Assembly (NCBI GenBank): GCA_035496255.1 | Contig: DATJEU010000006.1 | Location: forward strand, 10,254 to 74,253 | Origin: Vicinamibacterales bacterium | GTDB lineage: Bacteria > Acidobacteriota > Vicinamibacteria > Vicinamibacterales > UBA2999 | Direction: 5' to 3' | Length of the DNA stretch: 64,000 nucleotides | In this document: positions 4,639 through 57,787 of the stretch, in pieces | Numbering within the stretch: the first letter of the stretch is position 1 | Layout: every line of letters begins with the position of its first letter | The notes under the pieces: generated by a model | The model's input: the letters and a program-made list of their open reading frames with translations, nothing else | What the model was told of the DNA's origin: nothing | Database searches by the model: none | Position numbers and translations under genes: made by a program

Positions 4639-5113
4639 GGTGTCGCCCCACTCCGAGGATATCGAGAATCATCAGCGCAACGCCGACCGTGATCGCGGCG
4701 TCGGCCACGTTGAACGCCCAGAAATGCCAGTTCCCATGGTAGGCGTCGACGAAGTCGAGTACGTAGCCGTTGGCGATGCGATCGATCAGGTTGCCGGCGG
4801 CGCCGCCGATGACGAAGGCGAGGCCGAGGCGGCTGAGCCGCTGCGCCGCGTCGAGCGTCGCGGCGTAGAACCCCAGACCGGACAGCGCGGTGGCGGCGAC
4901 CAGCGCGACGACCAGCGTCTTGTACGGGAACTCCACGGCGTTCATCAGGCCGAAGGCAGCGCCGGTATTGTGCACCCGCGTCAGGTTCAGGCCCGGAAAG
5001 ACGTGGACGGTTTCGTACAGGCCAAGGTGGGTACGGACGATCTGTTTCGCGACCTGGTCGAGCACGACGACCGTGACCGCGATGATGACCTGGAGTGGTC
5101 GCGACGCCGTCAC
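4619..5113 (-). CDS. lspA: Lipoprotein signal peptidase II
   Basis: 164 aa, 4 TM. Motifs NTGAAFG and FNVAD. GTGA overlap with the ileS stop. Confidence 0.9.
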   Translation of the reverse strand: MTASRPLQVIIAVTVVVLDQVAKQIVRTHLGLYETVHVFPGLNLTRVHNTGAAFGLMNAVEFPYKTLVVALVAATALSGLGFYAATLDAAQRLSRLGLAFVIGGAAGNLIDRIANGYVLDFVDAYHGNWHFWAFNVADAAITVGVALMILDILGVGRHRVPRAV

Positions 5114-7935
5114 GCCTTCAACGCCGGTGCAGTGAGCGCGTCAACGCAACGATCGCAGAGGCCCGCCCACTGCGGCTCGTCGTGAATGGCCGGAACCATG
5201 CGCCAGCAGCGCTCACATTTCGCGCCTGGTGCGCGGTCGACCTCGACGCGGATAGTGTCGACGCCGTCCGCTGAGCCGAGGTGGAGCGCCACCTCCGAGA
5301 CGATGAACAGCGTCGGCAACGAATCGCGGTAGCGCTCGAGCAGCGCCGCGATCGGGCCGGACGCGGCGAGGACGACCCGCGCACCGAGCGACGTGCCGAT
5401 CACTTTGTCCTTCCGTTTTTCCTCGAGCGCCGCGTTGACGTCCTCGCGTACGGCCAGCAACTGTGCCCACCGCGCGCCGAGTTCCGGGTTTGCGTACCCG
5501 GCAACATCGGGAAAGGATTCGAGGTGCACGGATTCCGACCGCCGCCCAGGCAGGTGCAGCCACAGTGTGTCCGCGGTCACCGGCAGAATCGGCGCCAGCA
5601 AGCGGGCAAGGCCATCCGCGATGATGTACATCGCCGTCTGGGTTGACCGCCGCTCGCGCGAGGCCGCCGCGAATGTGTACATGCGGTCCTTTGTGGCATC
5701 CACGTAAAACGCGCTCAGATCGACGGTAGCGAACTGCAGCAGGAGTTTCGCGGCGTCGGCAAAGGCGTAGGTGTCATAGGCGCCGGCGACGCGAGTTGTC
5801 GTGTCGGTGTATCGATCCAGCGCGAACCGGTCGATTTCATCCATCTCGGCAACCGGCACCATGTCGGTCGCGGGATTGAAGTCGTAGAGATTCGCGGCGA
5901 GGATCCGGACCGTGTTGCGCAGCTTGCGATAGGCATCGATGACACGCGTCAGGATTTCCTTGCTGACGCGCAATTCCTCACTGTAGTCGCTCATCGCCAC
6001 CCACAGCCGGAGGATTTCGGCACCGCTTTCCTTGATCACGTCCTGCGGCACGATGACGTTGCCGACCGACTTCGACATCTTGCGGCCTTCGAGGTCGATC
6101 AGAAAGCCGTGAGTCAGTACCGCACGGAACGGCGGCCGCTGCCGCGTCGCCAATGCCACGAGCAGTGAGCTCTGGAACCACCCGCGATGCTGGTCGCTGC
6201 CTTCGAGGTACAGGTCCGCCGGCCAACCCAGTTCGGGATGACGCGCCAGCACGGCCTCGTGACTCGAACCCGAGTCGAACCAGACGTCCAGGATGTCGCG
6301 CTCACGCTCGAACTCGCTCCCGCCGCATGACGGGCACGTCAGGCCGGGCGGGATGAACTCGGCCGCGGGCCGTTCATACCAGGCGTCGGCTCCGTACTGC
6401 TCGAAGACCTTCGCCGCCCGCTCGACGAGGGCGGCAGTGATGATGGCCTCACCACACTTCGTGCAGTCAACTGCCGTGATCGGCACGCCCCACGCGCGCT
6501 GACGCGAGATGCACCAGTCGGGGCGATTCGTGACCATGTTGAAGATGCGGTCGTGTCCCCAGGCGGGAATCCAGCGCACTTCGTGATCGATCGCGTACTG
6601 GGCCGCGGCGCGCAGCGTTCGCGTCCGGCCATCGGCGCCCTCGATCACGGGATCTCCGTCCATGCGCACGAACCACTGCGCAGTGGCGAGAAAGATCACC
6701 GGGTTGTGACAGCGCCAGCAGTGCGGGTACTGATGCGAGAAAACCTCGCGATGCCAGAGCCGCGAGCGGTCCTTCAGCGCCTGCTCCACGTTCGGGTTCG
6801 CGTCGAACACACGCTGCCCGCCAAACAGCTCGACGGTCTCCAGGAAGTGACCGCCGGGTCCGACCGGTGCATAGATGTCGAGCCCGTACCTCTTGCCGGT
6901 GAGGAAGTCGTCGGCACCGTGACCGGGAGCGGTGTGCACCGCGCCCGTGCCCGCCTCGAGCGTGACGTAGTCGGCGAGGACGCCAACAGAATCGCGTGCG
7001 TAAAGCGGATGACGAAAGCGGAGGTGTTCGAGCTGCTCGCCCTTCATCCGCGCCACCGGCGGACCGAACGGCTTGCCCACGGCCTGCGACACGCGCTCGG
7101 CCAGACCTTCGGCGACGATGACTGCCGTCCCTTCGACATCGTACGCGGCGTAGTCGAACTCCGGATGGAACGCGATCGCGAGATTCGACGGAATCGTCCA
7201 CGGCGTCGTCGTCCAGATCAGCACCGAAACACTGCGACCGGACAGGGCGGGAACGCGCGCGGCGAGCTCGCCGGCGCTCTCGGGGTTCAGCGGAAATTCG
7301 ACGTAGATCGACGGCGATGAATGGTCCGCGTACTCGACTTCGGCTTCAGCCAGCGCCGTGCGGCAGTGGATGCACCAGTGCACCGGCTTCTTGCCCTTGT
7401 ACACGAGGCCGCGCTCGACGAACTTGCCCAGCGCCCGCGCGATGTCCGCCTGGTACTGGTAGTTCATCGTCAGGTAGTAATGGTCCCAGTCGCCGAAGAC
7501 CATCAGACGCTTGAATTCGCCGGTCATCACGCCGATGAACTTCTCGGCGTAGGCCCGGCAGGCGCGGCGGATGTCGGCGATCGACATCTCGCGCTTCTTC
7601 GGGCCGAGCTCGCGATCGACCTTCAGCTCGATCGGCAGACCATGGCAGTCGTAACCCGGCGTGTAAGGCACGTCGAAGCCGGCCATCGACTTCGACTTGA
7701 TGACGAGGTCCTTGAGGATCTTGTTGAGCGCCGTGCCGAGATGGATTCGCCCATTCGCGTACGGTGGGCCGTCGTGAAAGACGAATTTCGGCGCGCCCTC
7801 GCGCGCCTTGCGAATCTGCCCATACAGATCCATGGCCTCCCAGCGCGCCAGCGCCTCAGGCTCGGCTGTCTGCAGATTCGCTTTCATCGGAAAACCTGTA
7901 CGAGGCAGGTTGACCGTGTCCTTCCACTCGGGCAT
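5110..7935 (-). CDS. ileS: Isoleucyl-tRNA synthetase
   Basis: 941 aa. HIGH-type motif PPYANGRIHLGT, KMSKS motif RKMSKSVGN, C-terminal Cys pairs CERC...CDRC. Confidence 0.97.
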   Translation of the reverse strand: MPEWKDTVNLPRTGFPMKANLQTAEPEALARWEAMDLYGQIRKAREGAPKFVFHDGPPYANGRIHLGTALNKILKDLVIKSKSMAGFDVPYTPGYDCHGLPIELKVDRELGPKKREMSIADIRRACRAYAEKFIGVMTGEFKRLMVFGDWDHYYLTMNYQYQADIARALGKFVERGLVYKGKKPVHWCIHCRTALAEAEVEYADHSSPSIYVEFPLNPESAGELAARVPALSGRSVSVLIWTTTPWTIPSNLAIAFHPEFDYAAYDVEGTAVIVAEGLAERVSQAVGKPFGPPVARMKGEQLEHLRFRHPLYARDSVGVLADYVTLEAGTGAVHTAPGHGADDFLTGKRYGLDIYAPVGPGGHFLETVELFGGQRVFDANPNVEQALKDRSRLWHREVFSHQYPHCWRCHNPVIFLATAQWFVRMDGDPVIEGADGRTRTLRAAAQYAIDHEVRWIPAWGHDRIFNMVTNRPDWCISRQRAWGVPITAVDCTKCGEAIITAALVERAAKVFEQYGADAWYERPAAEFIPPGLTCPSCGGSEFERERDILDVWFDSGSSHEAVLARHPELGWPADLYLEGSDQHRGWFQSSLLVALATRQRPPFRAVLTHGFLIDLEGRKMSKSVGNVIVPQDVIKESGAEILRLWVAMSDYSEELRVSKEILTRVIDAYRKLRNTVRILAANLYDFNPATDMVPVAEMDEIDRFALDRYTDTTTRVAGAYDTYAFADAAKLLLQFATVDLSAFYVDATKDRMYTFAAASRERRSTQTAMYIIADGLARLLAPILPVTADTLWLHLPGRRSESVHLESFPDVAGYANPELGARWAQLLAVREDVNAALEEKRKDKVIGTSLGARVVLAASGPIAALLERYRDSLPTLFIVSEVALHLGSADGVDTIRVEVDRAPGAKCERCWRMVPAIHDEPQWAGLCDRCVDALTAPALKA

Positions 7936-14391: not shown

Positions 14392-15252
14392 CTACGTTGA
14401 CCCGGGCCTTCGCTGAATGATAGCGGTCCGCGCGAGCCCCTGTAGATCGGCGCGGAATCGTTCGAAACGCAGCGTCGGTCGGGCGTCGACCAGCGCGCGC
14501 ACGTCGTCTTCCTGGCCGAACCCGAATTCCATCACCAGCCAGCCGCCCGGTCGCAGTTTCACGCTCGCGGTGTCGAGCACGCCGGCGATGTCGCGCAGTC
14601 CGCTGTCGCCGCCGAAGAGCGCCACCTCGGGTTCATGGCGAACCGGCCGTCCGAGCGCCTCGCGATCACGATCCCGCACGTACGGCGGGTTGGCGCCAAT
14701 CAGGTCGAAGTCCTGTTCAACGCCGCCGAGATACGACGCGGCGACGAACTCGATCCGATCGGCCACGCCATGACGCTCCGCGTTCGTGAGGGCAACGGCG
14801 AGTGCGTCGCCGGATACGTCCGTCGCGATCACATGCGCATCCTGCCGCTCGTGCGCGAGGGCGACGGCGATATTGCCGCTGCCTGTCCCGATGTCCGCAA
14901 TCCGTGGACCCGCGATCGGCTGTAGCAGCGCCAGCGACTCCTCGACGATGAACTCGGTTTCGGGCCTCGGGATCAGGACGGCGGGGGTGACGGCGAAGTC
15001 GAGGCCCCAGAACTCGCGCGACCCGGTGATGTAGGCGCTCGGTTCGTGGCGCGTACGGCGCTCGACGAATTGGCTGAACCTGGGCTCGAGTTGCGGCGGC
15101 GGTGGCGATCGATGCTCGGCGAGCAGATGCGCGCGATCCCAGCCGAGGATCGTCCGTGCGTAAAGGTCGACGTCAATCGCGGCCTCGTCAGGCGCAATCC
15201 CGGCCGCGACGAGCCGATTGCGTGCGGCGGTCAGGAGCTCCTGCAGCGTCAC
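14392..15252 (-). CDS. prmC: Release-factor glutamine N5-methyltransferase
   Basis: SAM motif DIGTGSG and NPPY motif GANPPYV. GTGA overlap with the prfA stop. Confidence 0.9.
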
Positions 15253-16331
15253 TGCGGGGAGTCGTCCTGCGTCGCTTCCTTCAGCTTCTCGGCGTTGTAG
15301 TACGCCGTGACCTGGTCGAGCAGTTCGCCTACGTCTCCTTCGAGCACGTCGGTCAGCCGGTGCGTCGTGAAGTTGATCCGGTGGTCGGTGATGCGGCTTT
15401 GCGGGAAGTTGTAGGTCCGGATCTTCTCGGAGCGTTCGCCGGTGCCCACCTGGCTCTTGCGATCCTTCGCGATCGCCTCCTGCTGCTTGCGCATTTCCAT
15501 TTCGTAGAGGCGGGCGCGCAGCACCTTCATGGCCTTCGCGCGATTCTTGATCTGCGACTTCTCGTCCTGCTGCGAAACGACCACGCCGGTTGGAATGTGT
15601 GTGAGGCGCACCGCCGAGTAGGTGGTATTGACGCTCTGCCCGCCGGGGCCGCTGGAGCAGAACGTGTCGATGCGCAGATCCTTGTCGTTGATCTGAATGT
15701 CGACCTCCTCGGCTTCGGGAAGCACCGCGACGGTCGCCGTCGACGTGTGGATGCGGCCGCTCGCTTCGGTCGCCGGCACACGCTGCACGCGGTGCACGCC
15801 GCTTTCGTACTTCAGGCGGCTGTAAACACCGCGGCCGGAGATCGACGCGATCACTTCCTTCAGCCCCCCGGATGGACTGTCGCTGGACGACATCACTTCC
15901 AGCCTCCAGCCATGGCTCTCCGCGTATCGCTGATACATGCGGAACAGGTCGGCGGCGAACAGCGCCGCTTCGTCACCGCCGGTGCCGGCGCGGATCTCCA
16001 GCAGGACGTTCTTCTCGTCGTTGGGGTCTTTCGGCACGAGCAGGATCTTCAGCTCCTGCAGCAGCGACTCGCGTTTCTCCTGTAGTTCCGCGAGCTCCTC
16101 TTCCGCCAGCGCGCGCATGTCCGCATCGTCGCCGGCCAGCATTTCCTGCGCGCCGGCAATCGCCGTCTCGACACCCTTGTATTCACGGAACTTCTGGACG
16201 AGCGGTTCGAGATCGGACAGGGCTTTCGCGGCCCTCCGGTATTCGGACGGATCCGATTGCAGCTCGGTCGACCCGAGCTGCGACATCAGCCCTTCGTAAC
16301 GCGATTCAACGCTGGAGAGTTTGTCGAACAT
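15249..16331 (-). CDS. prfA: Peptide chain release factor 1
   Basis: 360 aa. GGQ motif (GPGGQSVNT) and the RF1-type PAT tripeptide in [14 protein letters not shown]. Confidence 0.96.
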
Positions 16332-16348
16332 TTCCTGTCTGCTGCCAA

Positions 16349-16594
16349 TTATCCGCCGGACACCGGCGGCATGAATGCGACCTCGTCGCCCTCAGCCACG
16401 GGTGCGGACATCCTGGTGTAATCCGCGTTCACGGCCACGGACATCGTGCGTTCGTAGTCGCGCAACCCGGGCATGTCCTGCACGAGCGACTGCCATACCG
16501 ATTGGACGGTGGCCGGTGCCGTCACGTCCCGAACGAGCTCGCCTGACCCGGCCAGGTCGCGGAGCCGTGCAAACAGCCGGACGGTCACGCGCAC
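16349..16594 (-). CDS. moaD: MoaD/ThiS-type sulfur-carrier protein
   Basis: 81 aa ending in GG (MPPVSGG). Overlaps moaE. Confidence 0.8.
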
Positions 16595-17088
16595 GCCCCT
16601 CGACTCCTCTCAGGGCTGGCGATCCGTCGCGCCCACTCGCGCGCCTCCTGGTCGGTCGGATCGGCGGTGGCGCCCTCGAGCCACACGTCTCCACCTTCAA
16701 AGTGCTCGTGCTTCCAGATCGGCACGATCTGCTTGACGCGTTCGATCACGTATCGGCACGCCGCAAACGCGTCAGCGCGATGCGGCGATGCGGCGACGAT
16801 GATGATGCTGGCCTCGCCGATGTCGAGCCGTCCGATGCGATGGTGCACCGCCAGCCGCGCCGTTGGCCATGCCGAACGGGACTCGTCGAGGATCAGGTTC
16901 AAGGCACGAACGGCAAGCGGTTCGTACGCCTCGTACTCCAGGAACGAGACGCGCCGGCCCTGATTGTGATCACGGACGAGGCCGATGAACGAGGTGACCG
17001 CGCCATCCCCGACGGCACCCTGGCAGACCGCGTCCGTCAGCGCGGAAAGATCGAGGGGCTCTGGCGTGACGGCGACCAGCGGGGTCAT
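16585..17088 (-). CDS. moaE: Molybdopterin synthase catalytic subunit
   Basis: 167 aa with MoaE-like blocks FIGLVRDHNQGRRV...LEYEAY and PIWKHE. Paired with moaD. Confidence 0.85.
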   Translation of the reverse strand: MTPLVAVTPEPLDLSALTDAVCQGAVGDGAVTSFIGLVRDHNQGRRVSFLEYEAYEPLAVRALNLILDESRSAWPTARLAVHHRIGRLDIGEASIIIVAASPHRADAFAACRYVIERVKQIVPIWKHEHFEGGDVWLEGATADPTDQEAREWARRIASPERSRGACA

Positions 17089-18541: not shown

Positions 18542-19213
18542 CTACCGGCCCAGAACGAGCAAGTACTGGTAGGGCAGGTTCTGGTGCGCGAGCACGCGCA
18601 GGCCGGCGGCGCGCGCATCGGCTTCGACGGCGGCGACGTCCACGCGCCCCTCATCAGGTCCGGGTCCGCCGTGTCCCGGCTTGTAGTTCACGACACCGAG
18701 TCGGCCCGCGGGCTTGAGCGCTGTCGCCAGGTTGTGGAGGAAGGTCACGCGATCGGCGACGTCGACTTCCGGATAGGTGTCGACGACGAGGACGGCGTCG
18801 AGGACGCCTTCCGGCAGATTCGGCGAACTGCCGACGCCGCGCCGTGTTTCGACGTTGCGCAGCCCTTCGCGACTGACGCGCCGGCGAATCGACTCGAGCA
18901 TCTCTGGCTGCACGTCCTGCGCATAGACCACGCCGTTCGGGCCGACGCGGTTCGCGAGATGAATCGTGAACCAGCCGGCGCCGGCACCGATGTCCGCCAC
19001 CTTCGAGCCCTCGGCGATGTTCAGGGCGTCCATGATCTCGTCCGGCTTCTGCCATTGGGCGCGGTCGGGCGCTTCGAGCGCACCGAGATCCTCGGGCCGA
19101 AAGAGTGGGCGATGTCCCTTGAGTGACTGCGCGCCCTGGTCCGCGCGCAGCAGACCACGGCACGGCACCGCCATGCATGCGACGAGCAGGCCGAGCAGCG
19201 TCCGTCGCGTCAC
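18542..19213 (-). CDS. Class I SAM-dependent methyltransferase with N-terminal twin-arginine-like signal
   Basis: SAM motif I VADIGAGAGWFT. N-terminus V-TRRTLLGLLVACMAVPCRGLLRA. Start GTG 19213 (GTGA overlap with the aspA stop). Confidence 0.75.
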   Translation of the reverse strand: MTRRTLLGLLVACMAVPCRGLLRADQGAQSLKGHRPLFRPEDLGALEAPDRAQWQKPDEIMDALNIAEGSKVADIGAGAGWFTIHLANRVGPNGVVYAQDVQPEMLESIRRRVSREGLRNVETRRGVGSSPNLPEGVLDAVLVVDTYPEVDVADRVTFLHNLATALKPAGRLGVVNYKPGHGGPGPDEGRVDVAAVEADARAAGLRVLAHQNLPYQYLLVLGR

Positions 19214-20613
19214 GGCTTCTTCCCCGGAATACCTGGCGTCGTCATCGACTCCGCCGAGAGTACGCGATCGAGCTGCGCCGACTCCATCAGTTTGCGCTCG
19301 AGCACGAGCTCGCGAATCGGTCGGCCGGTCTTCACCGATTCCTTGGCGATTTCCGCGGTCTTTTCGTAACCGATGTAGGGGCTGAGCGCCGTCGCGACGG
19401 CGGTGCTGCGATCCATCAGCGTACGGCAGCGGTCCGCATCGGCCTCGATGCCGTCGACCGTGCGCGTGCGCAGGGCGTCCATTGCGTTGCGGAGGATGAT
19501 CGAGGCGTGCAGCGCGTTCCACGCGATCACCGGCATCATCACGTTCAGTTCGAGCTGGCCCGCCTCCGACGCGGTGCACACGGTCATGTCGCAGCCAATG
19601 ACCTGGAAGCACACCTGGTTGACCATCTCAGGGATCGACGGATTGACCTTGCCCGGCATGATCGACGATCCAGGCTGCACCGCCGGCAGCGCGATCTCGC
19701 TGAGGCCGGCGCGCGGACCCATGGAGAGCAGGCGCAGGTCGTTGGCGACCTTCGTGAGTTCCACCGCGAGGCGGCGCATCGCGCTCGAATACGCGAGCAC
19801 GTCGCCCATGCTCTGGGTGAGGCGAAACCGGTTCTCTGCCGTGCGCAGTTGGATTCCCGTGAAGCGACGCAGGTGTGCCACGGCCCGCTCGGCGTAGTCC
19901 TCACCGGCGTTCAGCCCGGTGCCCACCGCGGTCGCGCCGAGGTTCAGCTCTTTCAACTGTTCGGCCGTACGCGACAGATCGTCGGCGCCGCGCGCGATGC
20001 AGGCGCCATAGCCACCGAACTCCTGGCCCAGCGTCATGGGTACCGCGTCCTGCAGATGCGTGCGCCCGACCTTCAAGACGTCAGCGAACTGTGCGGCTTT
20101 GCGATCGAATGCCTGCGCCAGCATCTGTGCGGCGGTGGACAGCGGCGTGTGGGCCAGCAGCAGCGCGAGGCGAGTGGCGGTCGGGAAGACGTCATTCGTC
20201 GACTGCCCCATGTTGACGTGATCGTTCGGATGAACCAGCGTGTACTCGCCGCGCCGTCCACCAAGGAGCTCCGACGCACGATTGGCGAGCACCTCGTTGG
20301 TGTTCATGTTGTGCGACGTACCGGCCCCCGCCTGGTACACGTCGACGATGAACTGGTCGCGCAGGGCGCCGCCGAGGATCTCGTCCGCTGCCCGGACGAT
20401 CGCGTCGCCGACCCTCGCATCCAGGCGCTTCAGCGTGGTGTTTGCGCTTGCAGCGGCCTTCTTGATGAGAACGGTGGCGGTGACGAGATCGGCCGGGGCG
20501 TGCAGGCCGCTGATCGGGAAATTCTCGACCGCTCGCGCCGTCTGGATGCCGTAATACGCCTCCGCCGGGACTTCCCGGCGACCCAGGGAGTCGTGCTCGA
20601 TTCGAGTGGTCAT
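19210..20613 (-). CDS. aspA: Aspartate ammonia-lyase (fumarate-lyase superfamily)
   Basis: Signature GSSIMPGKVNP and VDVYQAGAGTSHNMNTNEVLAN, which matches my recollection of AspA better than the FumC pattern. Start at the Met of MTTRIEHDSLG. Confidence 0.8.
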   Translation of the reverse strand: MTTRIEHDSLGRREVPAEAYYGIQTARAVENFPISGLHAPADLVTATVLIKKAAASANTTLKRLDARVGDAIVRAADEILGGALRDQFIVDVYQAGAGTSHNMNTNEVLANRASELLGGRRGEYTLVHPNDHVNMGQSTNDVFPTATRLALLLAHTPLSTAAQMLAQAFDRKAAQFADVLKVGRTHLQDAVPMTLGQEFGGYGACIARGADDLSRTAEQLKELNLGATAVGTGLNAGEDYAERAVAHLRRFTGIQLRTAENRFRLTQSMGDVLAYSSAMRRLAVELTKVANDLRLLSMGPRAGLSEIALPAVQPGSSIMPGKVNPSIPEMVNQVCFQVIGCDMTVCTASEAGQLELNVMMPVIAWNALHASIILRNAMDALRTRTVDGIEADADRCRTLMDRSTAVATALSPYIGYEKTAEIAKESVKTGRPIRELVLERKLMESAQLDRVLSAESMTTPGIPGKKP

Positions 20614-20660
20614 GCCTCGACTGCCTCTACCTGCCCGATGGTCCACTTTATACTGAGCGG

Positions 20661-22178
20661 ATGCTCCCTTCATTCTTCGACAGCATCGTTTCGCTCATCA
20701 TCAAGACGTCAACCGAACTGCCACCCGATGTGCGCGCCGCCATGAAAGTGGCGATGGCGCAGGAGCCGTCGGCGACGCAGTCGGGCCAGGCGCTGTCGAT
20801 CATCGCGCAGAACATCGACCTCGCGGCCGACTGTGAAGGGGCGATCTGTCAGGACACCGGCATGCCGACCTTCGAGGTGGCGACGCCGGTCGGCGCCAAT
20901 CAGCTCGTCATGCAGAAACAGATCCGGGAGGCCATTGCCGAGGCGACGAAGCGCGGAAAGCTGCGGCCCAACTCGGTCGATTCGATTACCGGGGAAAACT
21001 CGGGCACGAATCTCGGGCCCGGCACGCCGATCATCCACCTTCACCAGTGGGAGCGCGATGACGAGATCGAGGTGAAGCTGATTCTGAAGGGCGGCGGCTG
21101 CGAGAACATGAATGCGCAGTACTCGCTGCCGACCGAGCTGGCAAACCTCGGTCGGGCGGATCGATCGCTCGCGGGTGTGCGCAAGTGCATCCTGCACGCC
21201 GTGTGGAACGCACAGGGCAAGGGGTGCGCGCCCGGCGCGATCGGCGTCTCGATCGGCGGCGATCGCACGTCGGGTTACGTGCACGCGAAGGAGCAACTGT
21301 TCCGCACGCTCGATGACGTCAATCCCGATGCGCGCCTCGCGGAGCTCGAAGCGTCGATCATGGGCGAGGTCAACAAGCTCGGCATCGGCGCGATGGGCTT
21401 TGGCGGACGCGTCTCGCTCATCGGCTGCAAGATTGGCGTGCAGAATCGGCTGCCGGCGAGTTTCTACGTGTCGGTGGCCTACGACTGCTGGGCCTTCCGT
21501 CGTCTTGGCGTCGTACTCGATGCCCGCACCGGCGCGATCAATCGCTGGCTCTATCGCGACGAAAGCAGACCGGTGGCGGCGATGGCCGACCAGGCAGGGT
21601 TCCCGCGCACGGGTCGCGAGGTGGCGCTGCGCACGCCGCTGACCGAGGAGCAGATGCGCTCGCTCAAGGTCGGTGATGTCGTGTTGATTTCGGGTCGCGC
21701 CTACACCGGACGCGACGCAGTTCACCATCACCTGATGTCGCACGAACCGCCGGTCGATTTGCACGGCGCCGTCCTCTATCACTGCGGTCCCGTGGTCAAG
21801 AAGGAAGGCGAACACTGGACGGTCACGGCGGCGGGCCCGACCACGAGCATCCGCGAGGAGCCGTACCAGGCAGACGTGATCAAGCGCTACGGCGTGCGCG
21901 CGGTGATCGGCAAGGGCGGAATGGGCGCCAAAACCCTGGCCGCGCTGCAGGAGGCGGGAGCGGTCTACCTGAACGCGATCGGCGGTGCCGCGCAGTTCTA
22001 TGCCCGCACCATCAAGGGTGTCGATGGCGTCTCATTGATGGAGTTCGGCACGCCCGAAGCCATGTGGCACCTGCAAATCGAGGATTTTCCAGCCATTGTC
22101 ACGATGGACGCCCACGGGCGGAGCCTGCACAAGGATGTGGAGCAGGAGTCGGCGCGGGAGCTGGCGGCCATCCGCTGA
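20661..22178 (+). CDS. Class I (Fe-S dependent) fumarate hydratase / tartrate dehydratase family, fused alpha-beta
   Basis: 505 aa. N-terminal catalytic-domain blocks ICQDTGMPTFEV and KGGGCEN; C-terminal beta-domain GRAYTGRDAVHH...GKGGMG. Confidence 0.85.
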   Translation: MLPSFFDSIVSLIIKTSTELPPDVRAAMKVAMAQEPSATQSGQALSIIAQNIDLAADCEGAICQDTGMPTFEVATPVGANQLVMQKQIREAIAEATKRGKLRPNSVDSITGENSGTNLGPGTPIIHLHQWERDDEIEVKLILKGGGCENMNAQYSLPTELANLGRADRSLAGVRKCILHAVWNAQGKGCAPGAIGVSIGGDRTSGYVHAKEQLFRTLDDVNPDARLAELEASIMGEVNKLGIGAMGFGGRVSLIGCKIGVQNRLPASFYVSVAYDCWAFRRLGVVLDARTGAINRWLYRDESRPVAAMADQAGFPRTGREVALRTPLTEEQMRSLKVGDVVLISGRAYTGRDAVHHHLMSHEPPVDLHGAVLYHCGPVVKKEGEHWTVTAAGPTTSIREEPYQADVIKRYGVRAVIGKGGMGAKTLAALQEAGAVYLNAIGGAAQFYARTIKGVDGVSLMEFGTPEAMWHLQIEDFPAIVTMDAHGRSLHKDVEQESARELAAIR

Positions 22179-22253
22179 GCCGCTATAATTAGAGGATTCC
22201 GCTGGTCAGAAATCAGGTATCAGGGTCAGCGACCAGGGACCAGGAGCGACGAA

Positions 22254-22604
22254 ATGATTAACGTGTCCGAGACGGCAGCCTCGAAGATTAACGAGCTGCT
22301 CGCCGAAGAAGGCAAGAGCGGGAGCGGCCTGCGGGTGTTCGTGCAGGGCGGTGGCTGCTCGGGCTTCCAGTACGGGCTGATGATCGAAGAAAGCAGCGGC
22401 GCGGGCGACCAGGTGTTCGAGTCGAATGGCGTCAAGCTGTACATCGATCCGGTCAGCATCAGCTATCTGAATGGCGCCGAAGTCGATTTCGTCGACACCG
22501 TCACCGGCGGCGGCTTCACCATCAAGAACCCGAACGCGACCTCGACCTGCGGCTGCGGACAGTCGTTCAGTGTGGACGGCGAGAGCGCGGGCGCACATCA
22601 CTGA
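22254..22604 (+). CDS. erpA: A-type iron-sulfur cluster carrier (IscA/ErpA family)
   Basis: 116 aa. GGGCSGFQYG and C-terminal CGCGQSF. AGGAG Shine-Dalgarno 8 nt upstream; TATAAT at 22184-22189. Confidence 0.85.
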   Translation: MINVSETAASKINELLAEEGKSGSGLRVFVQGGGCSGFQYGLMIEESSGAGDQVFESNGVKLYIDPVSISYLNGAEVDFVDTVTGGGFTIKNPNATSTCGCGQSFSVDGESAGAHH

Positions 22605-22612
22605 TCCCCCGT

Positions 22613-23563
22613 GTGCCAACCGCTCTTCCTGATTTCAGCAAGCTGAAGCCGGCTGGCGGCAAACGCTCGAGCAAACGCGAGCAGATTGTCAGCGTCTTCC
22701 TTCGGCAGGAAGGGCATCTGAGCGCGGACGACCTCGTCGATCTGATGCGGCACGAAGATCGCCGCATCAGTCGCGCGACGGTCTACCGCACCCTCCAGTG
22801 GATGGTCGACACGGGCATCGCCCGCAAGGTCGACTTCGGCGAGGGCCGCTTCCGGTTCGAGCAGGGTTATCGGCAGCCGCGCCACTTCCATCTCGTGTGC
22901 AAGACCTGCAACGAATCGTTTGAGTTTCTCAGCTCGGACATCGAAGGCCTGATCGAGGAGATTGCGGGCGCACGCGGCTTCACGCCGGCGCAGAGCATCG
23001 TCCAGATCTACGGCCAGTGCGAAGACTGCCGCGGCGGCAAGCGCGGGGCGGTGAAAACCGAGCACGGACACAGCGATCTCGTGTTCGCGCGCGACGCGCT
23101 GCGGATTGCGATCGCCACCGAGCGCGGCGGCCTCGAGTTCTACACGCGTGCGGCGCGCGTCACGAAGGACGCCCGCGGACGGAAGATCTTCCAGGACCTC
23201 GCGGCGGAAGAGAAACATCATCTGGCCACGCTTGAAGAGCGATACGCGCAGCTCCTGCAGCGCGACCCGCAGCTCGACTCGCGGCCGACCTTCCTGTTCT
23301 TCAAGGGCGCCGCGCACGGACTCTTCGCTGAAGGAAGCGAACGGCTGATTGGCGGCGTCAACGATCAGCAGGCGCTGCTCATCGGCATCAGGTGCGAGCG
23401 CGGATCGCATCGCTTCTTCAAGAAGTACGGCGAGCGCTTCGAGGATTCCGAAGGCAAGCAGATCTTCCTGGAATTCGCCGACGAAGAACGCGCGCACCTC
23501 GATCTGCTCGTGCGCGAATATCGCGCACTCGTCAAACGCCAGGGACGGCGAAGACATTCGTGA
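22613..23563 (+). CDS. Fur-family regulator fused to a rubrerythrin-like (ferritin-fold, di-iron) domain
   Basis: N-terminal half: winged helix ISRATVYRTLQWMVDTGIARKV, with HFHLVCKTC and GQCEDC (two CxxC pairs). C-terminal half: two E...ExxH pairs (ERGGLEFY/AAEEKHHL and ERGSHRFF/ADEERAHL). One uninterrupted 316-aa ORF. Confidence 0.75.
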   Translation: MPTALPDFSKLKPAGGKRSSKREQIVSVFLRQEGHLSADDLVDLMRHEDRRISRATVYRTLQWMVDTGIARKVDFGEGRFRFEQGYRQPRHFHLVCKTCNESFEFLSSDIEGLIEEIAGARGFTPAQSIVQIYGQCEDCRGGKRGAVKTEHGHSDLVFARDALRIAIATERGGLEFYTRAARVTKDARGRKIFQDLAAEEKHHLATLEERYAQLLQRDPQLDSRPTFLFFKGAAHGLFAEGSERLIGGVNDQQALLIGIRCERGSHRFFKKYGERFEDSEGKQIFLEFADEERAHLDLLVREYRALVKRQGRRRHS

Positions 23564-23611
23564 TTCACGATTCGTGAATCGTGAATGCGGCCCCCAATCA
23601 CGAATCACGAA
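23558..23611. repeat. Phased heptamer array TCGTGA(A/T) / TCACGA(A/T): F-R-F-F, 12-nt spacer, R-R
   Basis: Units at 23558, 23565, 23572 and 23579, spacer 23586-23597, then units at 23598 and 23605. Contains the TGA stop of the Fur-fusion gene (23561-63) and abuts the ATG 23611 of the PHP gene. Confidence 0.7.
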
Positions 23612-24423
23612 TGGTCGATCTTCATCTTCATACCACTGCATCCGACGGCCGGCTGACTCCACTCGAGCTCGTCGCTGCTGCCGCCGCTGCGGGTGTGACG
23701 GTGATGGCCGTGACCGATCACGACACCATCGCTGCCTGTGCCGACGTACGCGACGAGGCGCAGCGCCGCGGCATCGAAACGATCACCGGCATCGAGATCA
23801 CCGCCGTTGAAAACAATCGCGACGTGCACATGCTCGGGTACTTTCTCGACACCGCAGATCGAGAGCTGGCGGCGTTCCTCGATCGGCAACGGGCGATCCG
23901 GCGGGCTCGCCTCGAGCACATCGGAGAGCGGCTCGCGGAGCTGGCGATGCCGATCGACACGGCGCAGATCGTCGCCGCGAGCGCCGGCCGCTCGATCGGA
24001 CGGCCGCAGGTCGCCGATGCCATGATCGCCGCCGGATACGTCGCGGATCGACGCGAAGCGTTCGATCGGTGGCTCGGGAGCGATCGTCCGGCCTTCGTCC
24101 CGCGCACGGGCGCTGCGCCCGAGCAGGTCATCGCCACGGTTCATCGTGCCGGTGGATTGATGTCGCTCGCACACCCAGGGCGGACGAAGCTCCCGGATCC
24201 GCGCCTGGAGCGTCTTGCCGCGGCGGGCCTTGATGCCCTCGAGGTCTATCACTCGGATCACGACGACGCGCTGATTGCACATTACGCGTCGCTGGCGGAT
24301 CGTCTCGGCCTGTTGCGTACCGGCGGATCGGATTTTCACGGCGATCCGTCGCACGGCGTGAGCATCGGCGGTTCGACGTTGCCGCCCGAATACTGGACCC
24401 GCCTTCACGCCGCCGCACGCTGA
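23611..24423 (+). CDS. PHP-domain metal-dependent phosphoesterase (TrpH/YciV-like)
   Basis: N-terminus MVDLHLHTTASDG, with later HP and GGSDFHG motifs. An alternative GTG start at 23581 lies inside the heptamer array. Confidence 0.8.
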   Translation: MVDLHLHTTASDGRLTPLELVAAAAAAGVTVMAVTDHDTIAACADVRDEAQRRGIETITGIEITAVENNRDVHMLGYFLDTADRELAAFLDRQRAIRRARLEHIGERLAELAMPIDTAQIVAASAGRSIGRPQVADAMIAAGYVADRREAFDRWLGSDRPAFVPRTGAAPEQVIATVHRAGGLMSLAHPGRTKLPDPRLERLAAAGLDALEVYHSDHDDALIAHYASLADRLGLLRTGGSDFHGDPSHGVSIGGSTLPPEYWTRLHAAAR

Positions 24424-24433
24424 TCGCGGCGCC

Positions 24434-25141
24434 ATGTCTACCGCGCTCCTGCAGGTTCGGAACATCGTCAAGGACTATCGCGCCCTGCGGCCGCTGCGGC
24501 TGCAGTCGCTCGACCTGCAGCCGGGCGAGCAGCTCGCGCTGCTTGGGTTCGATCAGGCCGCAGCCGAAGTGCTGGTGAACCTGTTGACCGGTGCGCTGCT
24601 GCCGGACGCGGGCACCGTGAGCCTCTTCGGGGAGCCGACGAGCGCGATTACAAATGCGGAAGGCTGGGTTCGATTTCTGGACCAGTTCGGCCTGATCAGC
24701 GAGCGCGCGGTCATGCTCGACCAGCTCTCGGCCGGGCAGAACCTGGCCATGCCACTGTCACTGAGTGTGCAATCGATGCCCCCGGAGGTACGTGACGCGG
24801 TTCGGGGCCTGGCGGGTGAGGTGGGCCTGAGCGCAGAAGAGCTGGAACGGCCGCTCGGGTCGCTCCCGGCTCTTCATCGCCAACGCGTCCGTCTTGGGCG
24901 TGCCGTGGCGCTGTCACCCCGCGTGTTGCTCGCTGAACACGCTAATGCACCGCTGTCGGGACCCGATACGCGGACGTTTGCCGGCGATTTGGCGCGCGTC
25001 GCCGCCACTCGCGGCATGGCCCTGCTGGTCCTCACCGCGAATCGCGACTTTGCCACGTCAATAACCTCGAAGGTCGCAACGCTTCAGCCTGCAACCGGCG
25101 AGCTCAAGCCCCTGCCAGGCTGGCGGCGATGGCTGCCGTAG
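24434..25141 (+). CDS. ABC-ATPase-like protein with degenerate catalytic motifs
   Basis: ABC fold recognisable (LQVRNIVKDY...GEQLALLG...PDAGTVSLFG). Walker A reads GFDQAAAE, the signature reads LPALHRQRV, Walker B reads VLLAEHANAPL, and the H-loop reads TANRD. Confidence 0.65.
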   Translation: MSTALLQVRNIVKDYRALRPLRLQSLDLQPGEQLALLGFDQAAAEVLVNLLTGALLPDAGTVSLFGEPTSAITNAEGWVRFLDQFGLISERAVMLDQLSAGQNLAMPLSLSVQSMPPEVRDAVRGLAGEVGLSAEELERPLGSLPALHRQRVRLGRAVALSPRVLLAEHANAPLSGPDTRTFAGDLARVAATRGMALLVLTANRDFATSITSKVATLQPATGELKPLPGWRRWLP

Positions 25142-25220: not shown

Positions 25221-25424
25221 GTGGCGAACGGGACGATTAAACGACTGGTGCGGGACCGGGGTTTTGGATTCATTCGGGACGACGGCGGTCAGGAGTGGTT
25301 CTTCCATCGCAGTTCCGTGAAGGCGGGCAGCTTCGACCAGCTCAATGAAGGACAGCGCGTGAGCTTCGACGAGGAACCGTCCGCCAAGGGGCCGCGCGCC
25401 GGGAATATTCGATCGGAAGCCTGA
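25221..25424 (+). CDS. Cold-shock domain protein
   Basis: 67 aa. RNP1-like motif RGFGFIRDD. GGAGG Shine-Dalgarno upstream of the GTG start. Confidence 0.95.
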   Translation: MANGTIKRLVRDRGFGFIRDDGGQEWFFHRSSVKAGSFDQLNEGQRVSFDEEPSAKGPRAGNIRSEA

Positions 25425-26179: not shown

Positions 26180-26386
26180 CTACCCTTCGATCAGACGCAC
26201 ATCACCGGCGCGCGGGCCTTTCGTCGAATCCTCGGAAACGAACTCCACGCGCTGGCCCTCCCGCAGCAGTTCGAAGACTGCTCCACGAACCGCACTGCGG
26301 TGAAAGAAATGCTCGATCCCACCCTCATCACGAATAAAACCAAATCCTTTGTCGATGAGGAGGCGTGCGATAGTCCCGGTCGGCAT
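26180..26386 (-). CDS. Cold-shock domain protein (paralogue)
   Basis: 68 aa. KGFGFIRDE motif. GGAGG Shine-Dalgarno 8 nt upstream of the ATG. Confidence 0.95.
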   Translation of the reverse strand: MPTGTIARLLIDKGFGFIRDEGGIEHFFHRSAVRGAVFELLREGQRVEFVSEDSTKGPRAGDVRLIEG

Positions 26387-57682: not shown

Positions 57683-57787
57683 AACTCCCAACTCCCAACG
57701 GCAATCGACCACCAACTCCCAACCGATCGACGACTACTCAGAGCGAGTTTGGAGGTTGGGTTTTGGGAGTTGGGAGTTGGGAGTTCC
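57683..57787. repeat. Hairpin built from tandem AACTCCC units (x2 plus 1) and GGGAGTT units (x3 plus degenerate copies)
   Basis: AACTCCC at 57683, 57690 and 57714. GGGAGTT at 57765, 57772 and 57779. Confidence 0.75.

Follow-up and report, generated by a model that had tools for sequence, protein, structure and literature searches.

The window analysed here, a 64,000-nucleotide stretch of contig DATJEU010000006.1 from a Vicinamibacterales bacterium, carries a gene that joins a Fur-family transcriptional regulator to a ferritin-like domain in one polypeptide (22613..23563, forward strand, as are all features below unless stated). The gene has a GTG start codon 8 nt past the stop codon of erpA and encodes 316 amino acids (aa) plus a stop. 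The N-terminal half is a Fur domain, with winged-helix DNA-binding and dimerisation domains (residues 15-140; 22655..23032), and the C-terminal half is a predicted ferritin-like di-iron four-helix bundle (residues 157-316; 23081..23560). A flexible linker (residues 141-156; 23033..23080) lies between them. An earlier note on this DNA, made from the letters alone, had described a single open reading frame (ORF) in which neither a stop nor a frame break separates the halves. The ORF listing of the window agrees, with no internal stop in the 316 codons, as does an identical 316-aa entry at NCBI named 'transcriptional repressor [Vicinamibacterales bacterium]'. Hidden Markov model (HMM) searches bear out both domain assignments in that note. 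The Pfam FUR model matches residues 15-132 (E 1.1e-26, 93.8 bits against a cut-off of 23.1), and the match to the Pfam Rubrerythrin model, split over two segments, has E 1e-10 and 42.5 bits, where the cut-off is 22.8.

Since the window is a single metagenome-type sequence, we considered whether adjacent fur and ferritin-like genes had been joined by a sequencing error. We found no support for such an artefact, and its probability is negligible. In a scan of one genome per species, 104 genomes had a relative at 67% identity or more, and 80 of these loci were fetched for the locus analyses. One unbroken fusion ORF was present at 80/80 of the orthologous loci, each from an independent genome, and the length of the linker is conserved. 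Both Pfam domains occur in one chain in all of the best 120 database matches to the protein, and in more than 1000 protein clusters across NCBI, JGI, ENA and Logan. Ratios of nonsynonymous to synonymous substitution rates (dN/dS; pairwise NG86, 400 random pairs from the 80 loci) were 0.076 for the Fur half, 0.51 for the 16-residue linker and 0.127 for the ferritin-like half, values that are only approximate because dS is ~1. The low ratios indicate that both halves are functional and constrained, and the linker is a freely evolving tether between them. Misassembly or a merged gene pair is thus excluded for practical purposes.

The fusion is found in at least 104 species-representative genomes and extends well beyond close relatives. 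An exhaustive search of 50%-identity representatives returned 118 at E < 1e-30, among them full-length fusion proteins down to 31-41% identity. Alignment identified P0143, P0145, P0160, P0165, P0171, P0194 and P0197 as true distant fusions. A frameshifted sequence (P0212) was excluded from the family, as were three proteins that resemble the fusion in length (P0210, P0240 and P0269). These three (290-336 aa) carry two tandem Fur domains per chain, another unusual Fur-family architecture. A profile built from the distant members recovered 1128 clusters at 90% identity (E ≤ 1e-10). Organism names, where the sources supply them, are Acidobacteriota, Terriglobia or Vicinamibacterales. Seven of the fetched loci (L008, L040, L069, L070, L071, L074 and L079) are labelled Acidimicrobiia, Bifidobacteriaceae, Solirubrobacterales or Solibacteraceae. 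They have the same Vicinamibacterales-type synteny at 67-83% identity and are thus probably mis-binned or mis-labelled. From the family searches and these labelled loci, presence outside Acidobacteriota could not be established. Judging by the sequences recovered, the fusion is widespread and conserved across Acidobacteriota.

The Fur half is unambiguous as to family. Its PDB sequence matches are Zur, Fur and PerR proteins (best E 3e-17), and a Foldseek search with a model of the whole protein returned only Fur, Zur, PerR and Mur structures in the top 50 (probability 1.0, TMt ~0.5). We mapped the metal sites onto E. coli Fur, using a reference sequence that was validated in that each of the twelve ligand positions in the literature carried a residue of the expected type. 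Every ligand of regulatory site 2 is kept (E. coli H33, E81, H88, H90 and E101 are H35, E83, H91, H93 and E104 here). The two histidines H91 and H93 (22883-22891) lie just upstream of the first CxxC pair. The predicted structural Cys4 zinc site is also complete, with C96 and C99 in the first CxxC (22898..22909) equivalent to E. coli C93 and C96, and C136 and C139 in the second, at the end of the Fur domain (23018..23029), equivalent to C133 and C138. These are the HFHLVCKTC (residues 91-99) and GQCEDC (residues 134-139) motifs to which the earlier note had pointed. In an alignment of 46 members of 34-90% identity, the site-2 ligands are present in 46/46 sequences and the four cysteines are invariant. 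The accessory site 3 is largely lost, with one of four ligands kept (E. coli H87, D89, E108 and H125 are R90, F92, E111 and S128). It is lost in 19/19 sequences of the Vicinamibacterales branch, while most distant-branch sequences have H/H/E/H at these positions.

Placement within the Fur family is less direct. All NCBIfam equivalog models fall below their cut-offs: 64.6 bits against 146 for the Fur model PRK09462, 64.1 against 220 for the Bacillus-type Fur, 54 against 167 for Zur, and 52 against 180, 32 against 200 and 26 against 200 for the PerR models. The Irr equivalog model is likewise well under its cut-off. The signature of PerR is an Asp at two carboxylate positions of the regulatory site (D85 and D104 in B. 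subtilis). A PerR assignment was rejected, as Glu rather than Asp is found at both positions (E83 and E104) in 46/46 sequences and the PerR HMM scores are too low. Of the 'Fur/PerR' label given in the earlier note, the Fur family therefore stands and PerR does not. The top PDB sequence matches are the Zur proteins 3MWM and 2O03, though the protein lacks a Cys at the Zur Cys-ligand position. The regulatory zinc site of S. coelicolor Zur consists of D65, C79, H85 and H87. By its model scores and ligand residues, the Fur half appears to form a subgroup of its own in the family, with ligands like those of Fur and Mur.

As the fold search with the whole protein gave Fur matches only, the C-terminal domain was modelled separately. 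AlphaFold2 (AF2) predicted a four-helix bundle for the isolated domain, with a predicted local distance difference test (pLDDT) score of 90.5 and a predicted template modelling (pTM) score of 0.86. The whole-protein model is of lower quality (pLDDT 82, pTM 0.64), with a low-confidence linker, where pLDDT falls to ~63. The two E...ExxH pairs reported in the earlier note are present and conserved as E170...E200-x-x-H203 and E262...E292-x-x-H295. The six residues are the predicted di-iron ligands, encoded at 23120-23122 (E170), 23210-23221 (E200 to H203), 23396-23398 (E262) and 23486-23497 (E292 to H295). The 46-sequence alignment shows no change at E200, H203, E292 or H295, while E170 and E262 are each found in 45/46. 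Away from these ligands there are two further invariant motifs: helix A starts with F158-A-R-D-A-L163, and the cross-over loop contains P225..L228.F230.

The nearest relatives of the bundle are COG1633/TM1526-type proteins. A family profile matched the PDB sequences 1VJX (TM1526, 'putative ferritin-like diiron-carboxylate protein'; E 1.7e-11), 2FZF (P. furiosus PF1190; 3e-8) and 2OH3 ('COG1633 uncharacterized conserved protein'; 9e-6), and after these came designed di-iron bundles and encapsulated ferritins. Foldseek ranked 2FZF first, with TMt values of 0.71 for 2OH3 and 0.67 for 1VJX. The nearest folds (TM 0.55-0.71) are 2FZF, the Dps-like PA4880, 3FSE, COQ7, 2OH3, bacterioferritins and 1VJX; with the cage-forming proteins the bundle shares a similar fold and no more (TM 0.55-0.67 for PA4880, Bfr and Dps). 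The top 50 contained no canonical rubrerythrin. In peroxidase rubrerythrins the seventh ligand is a second Glu in helix C (E94/E97 in D. vulgaris Rbr). We did not find this helix-C ExxE here, the sequence being C-E262-R-G-S-H with Ser at +3 and no conserved Glu at that position in the family. Nor was there a rubredoxin-like Fe(Cys)4 domain, which rubrerythrins carry at the C-terminus or, in 'reverse' forms, at the N-terminus, as the chain stops ~8 residues past helix D and its sole CxxC pairs are those of the Fur domain. Canonical rubrerythrin was rejected on the missing rubredoxin domain, the missing seventh Glu and the COG1633-type nearest structures, and for the same reasons peroxidase activity cannot be inferred. 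The earlier description of the domain as 'rubrerythrin-like' is thus right at the level of the Pfam family, but not if a true rubrerythrin is meant. By its ligands and structural neighbours, the bundle is of the COG1633/TM1526 type with a predicted six-ligand di-iron site as in bacterioferritin. Among NCBIfam models it is closest to the ferritin domain at the C-terminus of PRK12775, a GltD-like flavoprotein fusion (E 1.1e-17), and this reductase-fused relative suggests that the di-iron centre may be redox-cycled.

Comparison with known systems sets the fusion apart from each of them. With Fur and Mur proteins (E. coli Fur, M. gryphiswaldense Fur 4RB1 and C. jejuni Fur 4ETS) it shares the winged-helix and dimerisation fold, the Cys4 site and the five site-2 ligands, at ~25-35% identity. 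It differs from them in its extra C-terminal bundle of ~160 residues, found in no characterised Fur, in the loss of site 3 in the branch of the window, in scoring below the NCBIfam Fur cut-offs and in having no identified Fur box. By model score it is an equivalog of neither Fur nor PerR, nor of Zur or Irr. The stand-alone COG1633/TM1526-type proteins (1VJX, 2FZF and 2OH3), the best matches to the bundle, share its E/ExxH/E/ExxH pattern and similar size (~150-170 aa), but are only ~20% identical to it, have no DNA-binding partner and are of unknown function. PRK12775 and the erythrin domain of MbfA (E 1.1e-17 and 1.3e-8) show a COG1633-like bundle as an accessory module, although the partner there is a reductase or a membrane iron exporter and not a transcription factor. 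In concept, the closest parallel is with hemerythrin-type di-iron sensors, which include mammalian FBXL5 and bacterial hemerythrin-coupled signalling proteins. In an FBXL5-type switch the metallation or oxidation of a dinuclear iron bundle controls a fused output, and iron and O2 are sensed jointly. The likeness is one of analogy and not homology; the sequences are unrelated, that fold is a His-rich hemerythrin rather than a carboxylate-rich ferritin-like bundle, and the output here would be DNA binding.

The earlier note had read the gene as a Rosetta-stone fusion of partners that are neighbours elsewhere. Such neighbours exist in anaerobes. D. vulgaris has a fur-like-rbr-rdl operon. Vicinamibacteria, in contrast, are aerobic soil bacteria. 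Like the fusion, perR-rbr operons tie a Fur-family regulator to a di-iron protein of the Rubrerythrin family, as in the C. difficile operon rbr-perR-rbo-gltD (bioRxiv 10.1101/2024.09.17.613384). The fusion differs in being a single polypeptide with Glu in place of the PerR Asp, no rubredoxin and no seventh Glu. Because these operons involve other subfamilies of both partners, the Rosetta-stone argument applies loosely and is only suggestive.

In Vicinamibacterales the fusion gene belongs to a conserved cluster in the order fumC (reverse), fumA (forward), erpA, fusion gene, PHP phosphoesterase and ABC-like ATPase. The first of the genes downstream of the promoter, erpA (22254..22604; Pfam Fe-S_biosyn, E 1.6e-21), encodes an A-type Fe-S cluster carrier that exceeds the NCBIfam ErpA equivalog cut-off (135.2 bits against 117). 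The gene that follows the fusion (23611..24423; Pfam PHP, E 6.6e-12) encodes a PHP-family phosphoesterase (YciV/TrpH-like), with the likely true start at ATG 23611 (MVDLHLHTTASDG); against the NCBIfam nucleoside-bisphosphate phosphatase and RNase AM models it scores ~175 bits, under the cut-off. The last conserved gene of the cluster is ABC-type ATPase-like (24434..25141; Pfam ABC_tran, E 3.3e-7), and its position and order are unchanged wherever a locus reaches that far. Upstream lies fumA (20661..22178; Pfam Fumerase and Fumerase_C), which encodes a class I ([4Fe-4S]) fumarate hydratase and has a near-leaderless promoter to itself. Its -10 box in the window is TATACT at 20649-20654, a AATTATACTG box ~6 nt before the ATG is conserved in 57 loci, and from this spacing the fumA mRNA is predicted to be leaderless or nearly so. 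Divergent from fumA across a spacer of ~47 nt (20614-20660) is fumC (19210..20613, reverse strand; Pfam Lyase_1 and FumaraseC_C), a class II, iron-free fumarase with a likely start at M21 of the listed ORF. Its synteny is kept in most loci.

The earlier note had placed the fusion gene just after erpA, which the erpA match and the 8-nt gap confirm for the window, and erpA is directly upstream in 80/80 Vicinamibacterales loci. The -10 box of the erpA operon, TATAAT at 22184..22189, begins 5 nt past the fumA stop codon. In 56 anchored loci a TATAAT or TATACT box is conserved upstream of erpA, with a CTTGCC -35 box in most. The stop codon of the fusion gene overlaps the start of the PHP gene as GTGA in many relatives. 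This single promoter and the GTGA overlaps define a transcription unit of erpA, fusion gene and PHP gene, possibly with the ABC-like gene, and co-transcription of the fusion gene with erpA in Vicinamibacterales, as predicted from the gene arrangement, is supported. The linkage does not hold across the family. In the distant branch (contexts of P0342, P0145 and P0347) there is no erpA near the fusion gene, and the neighbours are unrelated housekeeping genes, namely fabA/lpxA-like genes, RF-1, recJ, methionine aminopeptidase and an M48 peptidase. These contexts led us to reject erpA linkage as a family-wide trait; being absent from the distant branch, it is specific to the order and lies outside the core logic of the fusion. 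A context that varies in this way would fit a global rather than a local regulator.

Several minor variations were seen around the cluster. An extra 1-1.8 kb lies between fumA and erpA in L044, L048, L050 and L056-L063, and L042 has extra DNA between erpA and the fusion gene (4645-6001). MoaE and RF-1 are encoded within ~6 kb of the fusion gene both in the window (14392-17088, together with PrmC) and in L083 (1-6923). The fusion protein of L083 is only ~38% identical to that of the window, and the shared MoaE and RF-1 may be left over from an ancestral gene order. On either side of a DUF218-like gene are two ORFs of just 67-68 aa (25221-25424, and 26180-26386 on the reverse strand) that look cold-shock-domain-like by eye, with a GFGFIR motif. 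Most relatives keep at least one of the two downstream of the cluster.

We favour, at a probability of about 0.55, the reading that the protein is an iron-responsive repressor in which the di-iron domain serves as a second iron/oxidant input. It is highly probable that the protein is a genuine fusion of a Fur-family regulator and a bundle that functions in metal binding. A specifically sensory role for the bundle is a more tentative proposal, to which we give a little short of even odds. The Fur half would most likely bind Fe(II) and repress its target promoters as a dimer, as Fur does, and the bundle would add a second, dinuclear sensory input. The trigger could be the uptake of two Fe(II) by the bundle, or else O2 or H2O2 could oxidise the di-ferrous centre. 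Either event would change the fold of the bundle or its pairing with the bundle of the partner subunit. Changed pairing, in turn, might tune the geometry, oligomerisation or stability of the repressor dimer, or the geometry or cooperativity of its DNA binding. In this way the regulator would combine information on iron supply and oxidant load. The Vicinamibacterales branch has lost site 3, and its fusion gene has been captured into an erpA-led operon beside an Fe-S fumarase, a setting that fits a role in iron and Fe-S homeostasis. A bolder version, in which a ferritin-fold di-iron switch acts with or instead of the mononuclear Fur site to gate DNA binding by a master iron/oxidant regulator of Acidobacteriota, a phylum among the most abundant in soil, seems doubtful.

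A number of observations weigh against the favoured reading. With site 2 intact, iron could be sensed by the Fur half alone, and the di-iron domain need not be sensory. The AF2 monomer has no confident inter-domain contact, and no allosteric path is visible in it. The divergent member P0143 is missing several ligands in both halves, and dS near saturation loosens the estimates of constraint. The best PDB sequence matches are to Zur, all NCBIfam equivalog models score below cut-off, and the sequence does not discriminate between Fe, Mn and Zn as the preferred metal. Operator searches were also negative. Upstream of erpA nothing is conserved beyond the -35 and -10 boxes, and in the fumC/fumA spacer the only conserved element is the AATTATACTG -10 box, with no operator. 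Scans of four upstream regions for inverted repeats found nothing shared, and the regions upstream of erpA, fumA and the distant-branch genes yielded neither a conserved palindrome nor a Fur box.

The bundle might instead be a catalytic module tethered to the regulator, with no part in sensing. As a ferroxidase, or as a peroxidase or oxidase of the rubrerythrin or Dps type, it would remove H2O2 or oxidise stray Fe(II) at the iron-loaded repressor and its DNA sites, and so lessen local Fenton damage. Membership in the Pfam Rubrerythrin family, fold neighbours that include PA4880, Dps proteins and bacterioferritin ferroxidase centres, and a closest NCBIfam match to a reductase-fused ferritin domain are all in keeping with an enzyme. 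A regulator and a scavenger also occur together in perR-rbr operons, and with site 2 intact, sensing may not need the bundle. Such an enzyme would, however, have neither a rubredoxin or other electron-donor domain nor the seventh Glu of the peroxidases, and no reductase gene is conserved beside the fusion gene. At the stoichiometry of a regulator it would presumably add little bulk scavenging. We regard this explanation as unlikely.

A structural role is, in our view, quite improbable. Here the bundle would be an extra dimer or tetramer interface, with structural metals, that pairs head-to-tail as in rubrerythrin or erythrin and stabilises Fur dimers, or a dimer of dimers on DNA, in place of site 3. 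The dimerisation-domain site 3 is indeed lost exactly in the branch of the window (R90, F92 and S128), the invariant motifs off the metal site (F158-ARDAL-163 and P225..L228.F230) could be interfaces, and half-ferritin relatives (EncB/Flp) work through dimerising. Against this, site 3 and the bundle coexist in the distant branch, and the bundle therefore did not arise as a replacement for site 3. The six di-iron ligands are, moreover, strictly kept down to ~34% identity, more than a structural role usually requires. The gene order in Vicinamibacterales raises another alternative, in which the Fur half is a sensor of Fe-S status: ErpA would deliver a [2Fe-2S] cluster to the Cys site, and the bundle would supply or buffer the iron. 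A [2Fe-2S] cluster at this site has been proposed for E. coli Fur. The 8-nt gap to erpA, the adjacency of the two genes in 80/80 Vicinamibacterales loci, their one conserved promoter and the Fe-S fumarase next door would all suit such a sensor. The four cysteines, however, correspond to the canonical structural zinc site, and distant members have no erpA beside the fusion gene, which makes a sensor of this kind very improbable.

If the bolder version, with the di-iron switch as the gate, is correct, the fusion would be a new class of bacterial iron/oxidant sensor, in which one protein reads both the Fe(II) supply and exposure to O2 or H2O2. The earlier note knew of no characterised example; our targeted full-text literature searches likewise found no paper on a fusion of Fur with a ferritin-like or rubrerythrin domain. 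A phylogenomic study of rubrerythrins (PMC5114695) makes no mention of a Fur fusion, and a literature search on COG1633/TM1526 found no functional study. Databases already display both Pfam domains under the label 'Fur family transcriptional regulator', so that with the literature silent the architecture is visible but unremarked. To our knowledge, all characterised examples of Fur, the paradigm bacterial iron regulator, are single-module proteins of ~130-170 residues. That paradigm would gain a further layer of input from a Fur that is spread across a phylum and strictly conserves a second, dinuclear iron site. The fusion is also a natural test case for ferritin-like di-iron bundles as signalling modules, and it could give a functional handle on the COG1633/TM1526 relatives, whose PDB labels are hypothetical, putative or uncharacterised. 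Soils, in which iron and oxygen fluctuate, are rich in Vicinamibacterales and other Acidobacteriota, and knowing their iron/oxidant switch would help in reading metatranscriptomes. The hypothesis can be put to a direct test, as the protein is small and likely to be soluble and easy to express.

The spacer between the fusion gene and the PHP gene (23564..23610) contains the heptamer array against which the earlier note had suggested testing DNA binding by the regulator. The array exists, as tandem heptamers (TCGTGAA and AATCACG; period-7 arrays in TRF) that form the arms of an intergenic hairpin. The 47-nt spacer is predicted to fold as RNA at -27.5 kcal/mol (z -2.9). It includes a perfect 7-1-7 palindrome, TTCACGA-T-TCGTGAA (23564-23578), that is unique in the window, where looser matches occur at the level of chance (5 found, 2.9 expected). 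The array is absent from all 80 relatives, in which the spacer is 0 nt (GTGA) or contains unrelated hairpins. A second hairpin of the same build, with other heptamers (AACTCCC and GGGAGTT), is found at 57683-57785. We rejected the array as an operator because its palindrome is unique in the window and the array is unconserved and hairpin-forming, with a second hairpin alike in build but not in heptamers; it is a lineage-specific hairpin of a generic class and not a conserved operator.

Hairpins with short-period repeats were also seen in intergenic spacers of L003, L019, L025, L041, L044, L045 and L066. The arms are tandem 7-8-nt repeats whose sequences are site-specific (CCCTAAT and GATTCCA... 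are others). Tandem-repeat hairpins seem to occur generally between genes in Vicinamibacterales, and possible roles are as repetitive extragenic palindromic (REP)-like elements, RNA stabilisers or terminators. In L083 an inverted repeat absent from the window, TTTACGGC-N11-GCCGTAAA (6938-6964), lies ~40 nt upstream of the fusion gene of P0145; it may be an operator particular to that lineage, or else just a small hairpin. A different palindromic element, GGGGTCGGGAGTCATTT...AAATGACTCCCGACCCC, recurs in the fumC-fumA spacers of L004, L005, L010, L015, L018, L025 and L030, and looks like a mobile hairpin of the REP or miniature inverted-repeat transposable element (MITE) kind.

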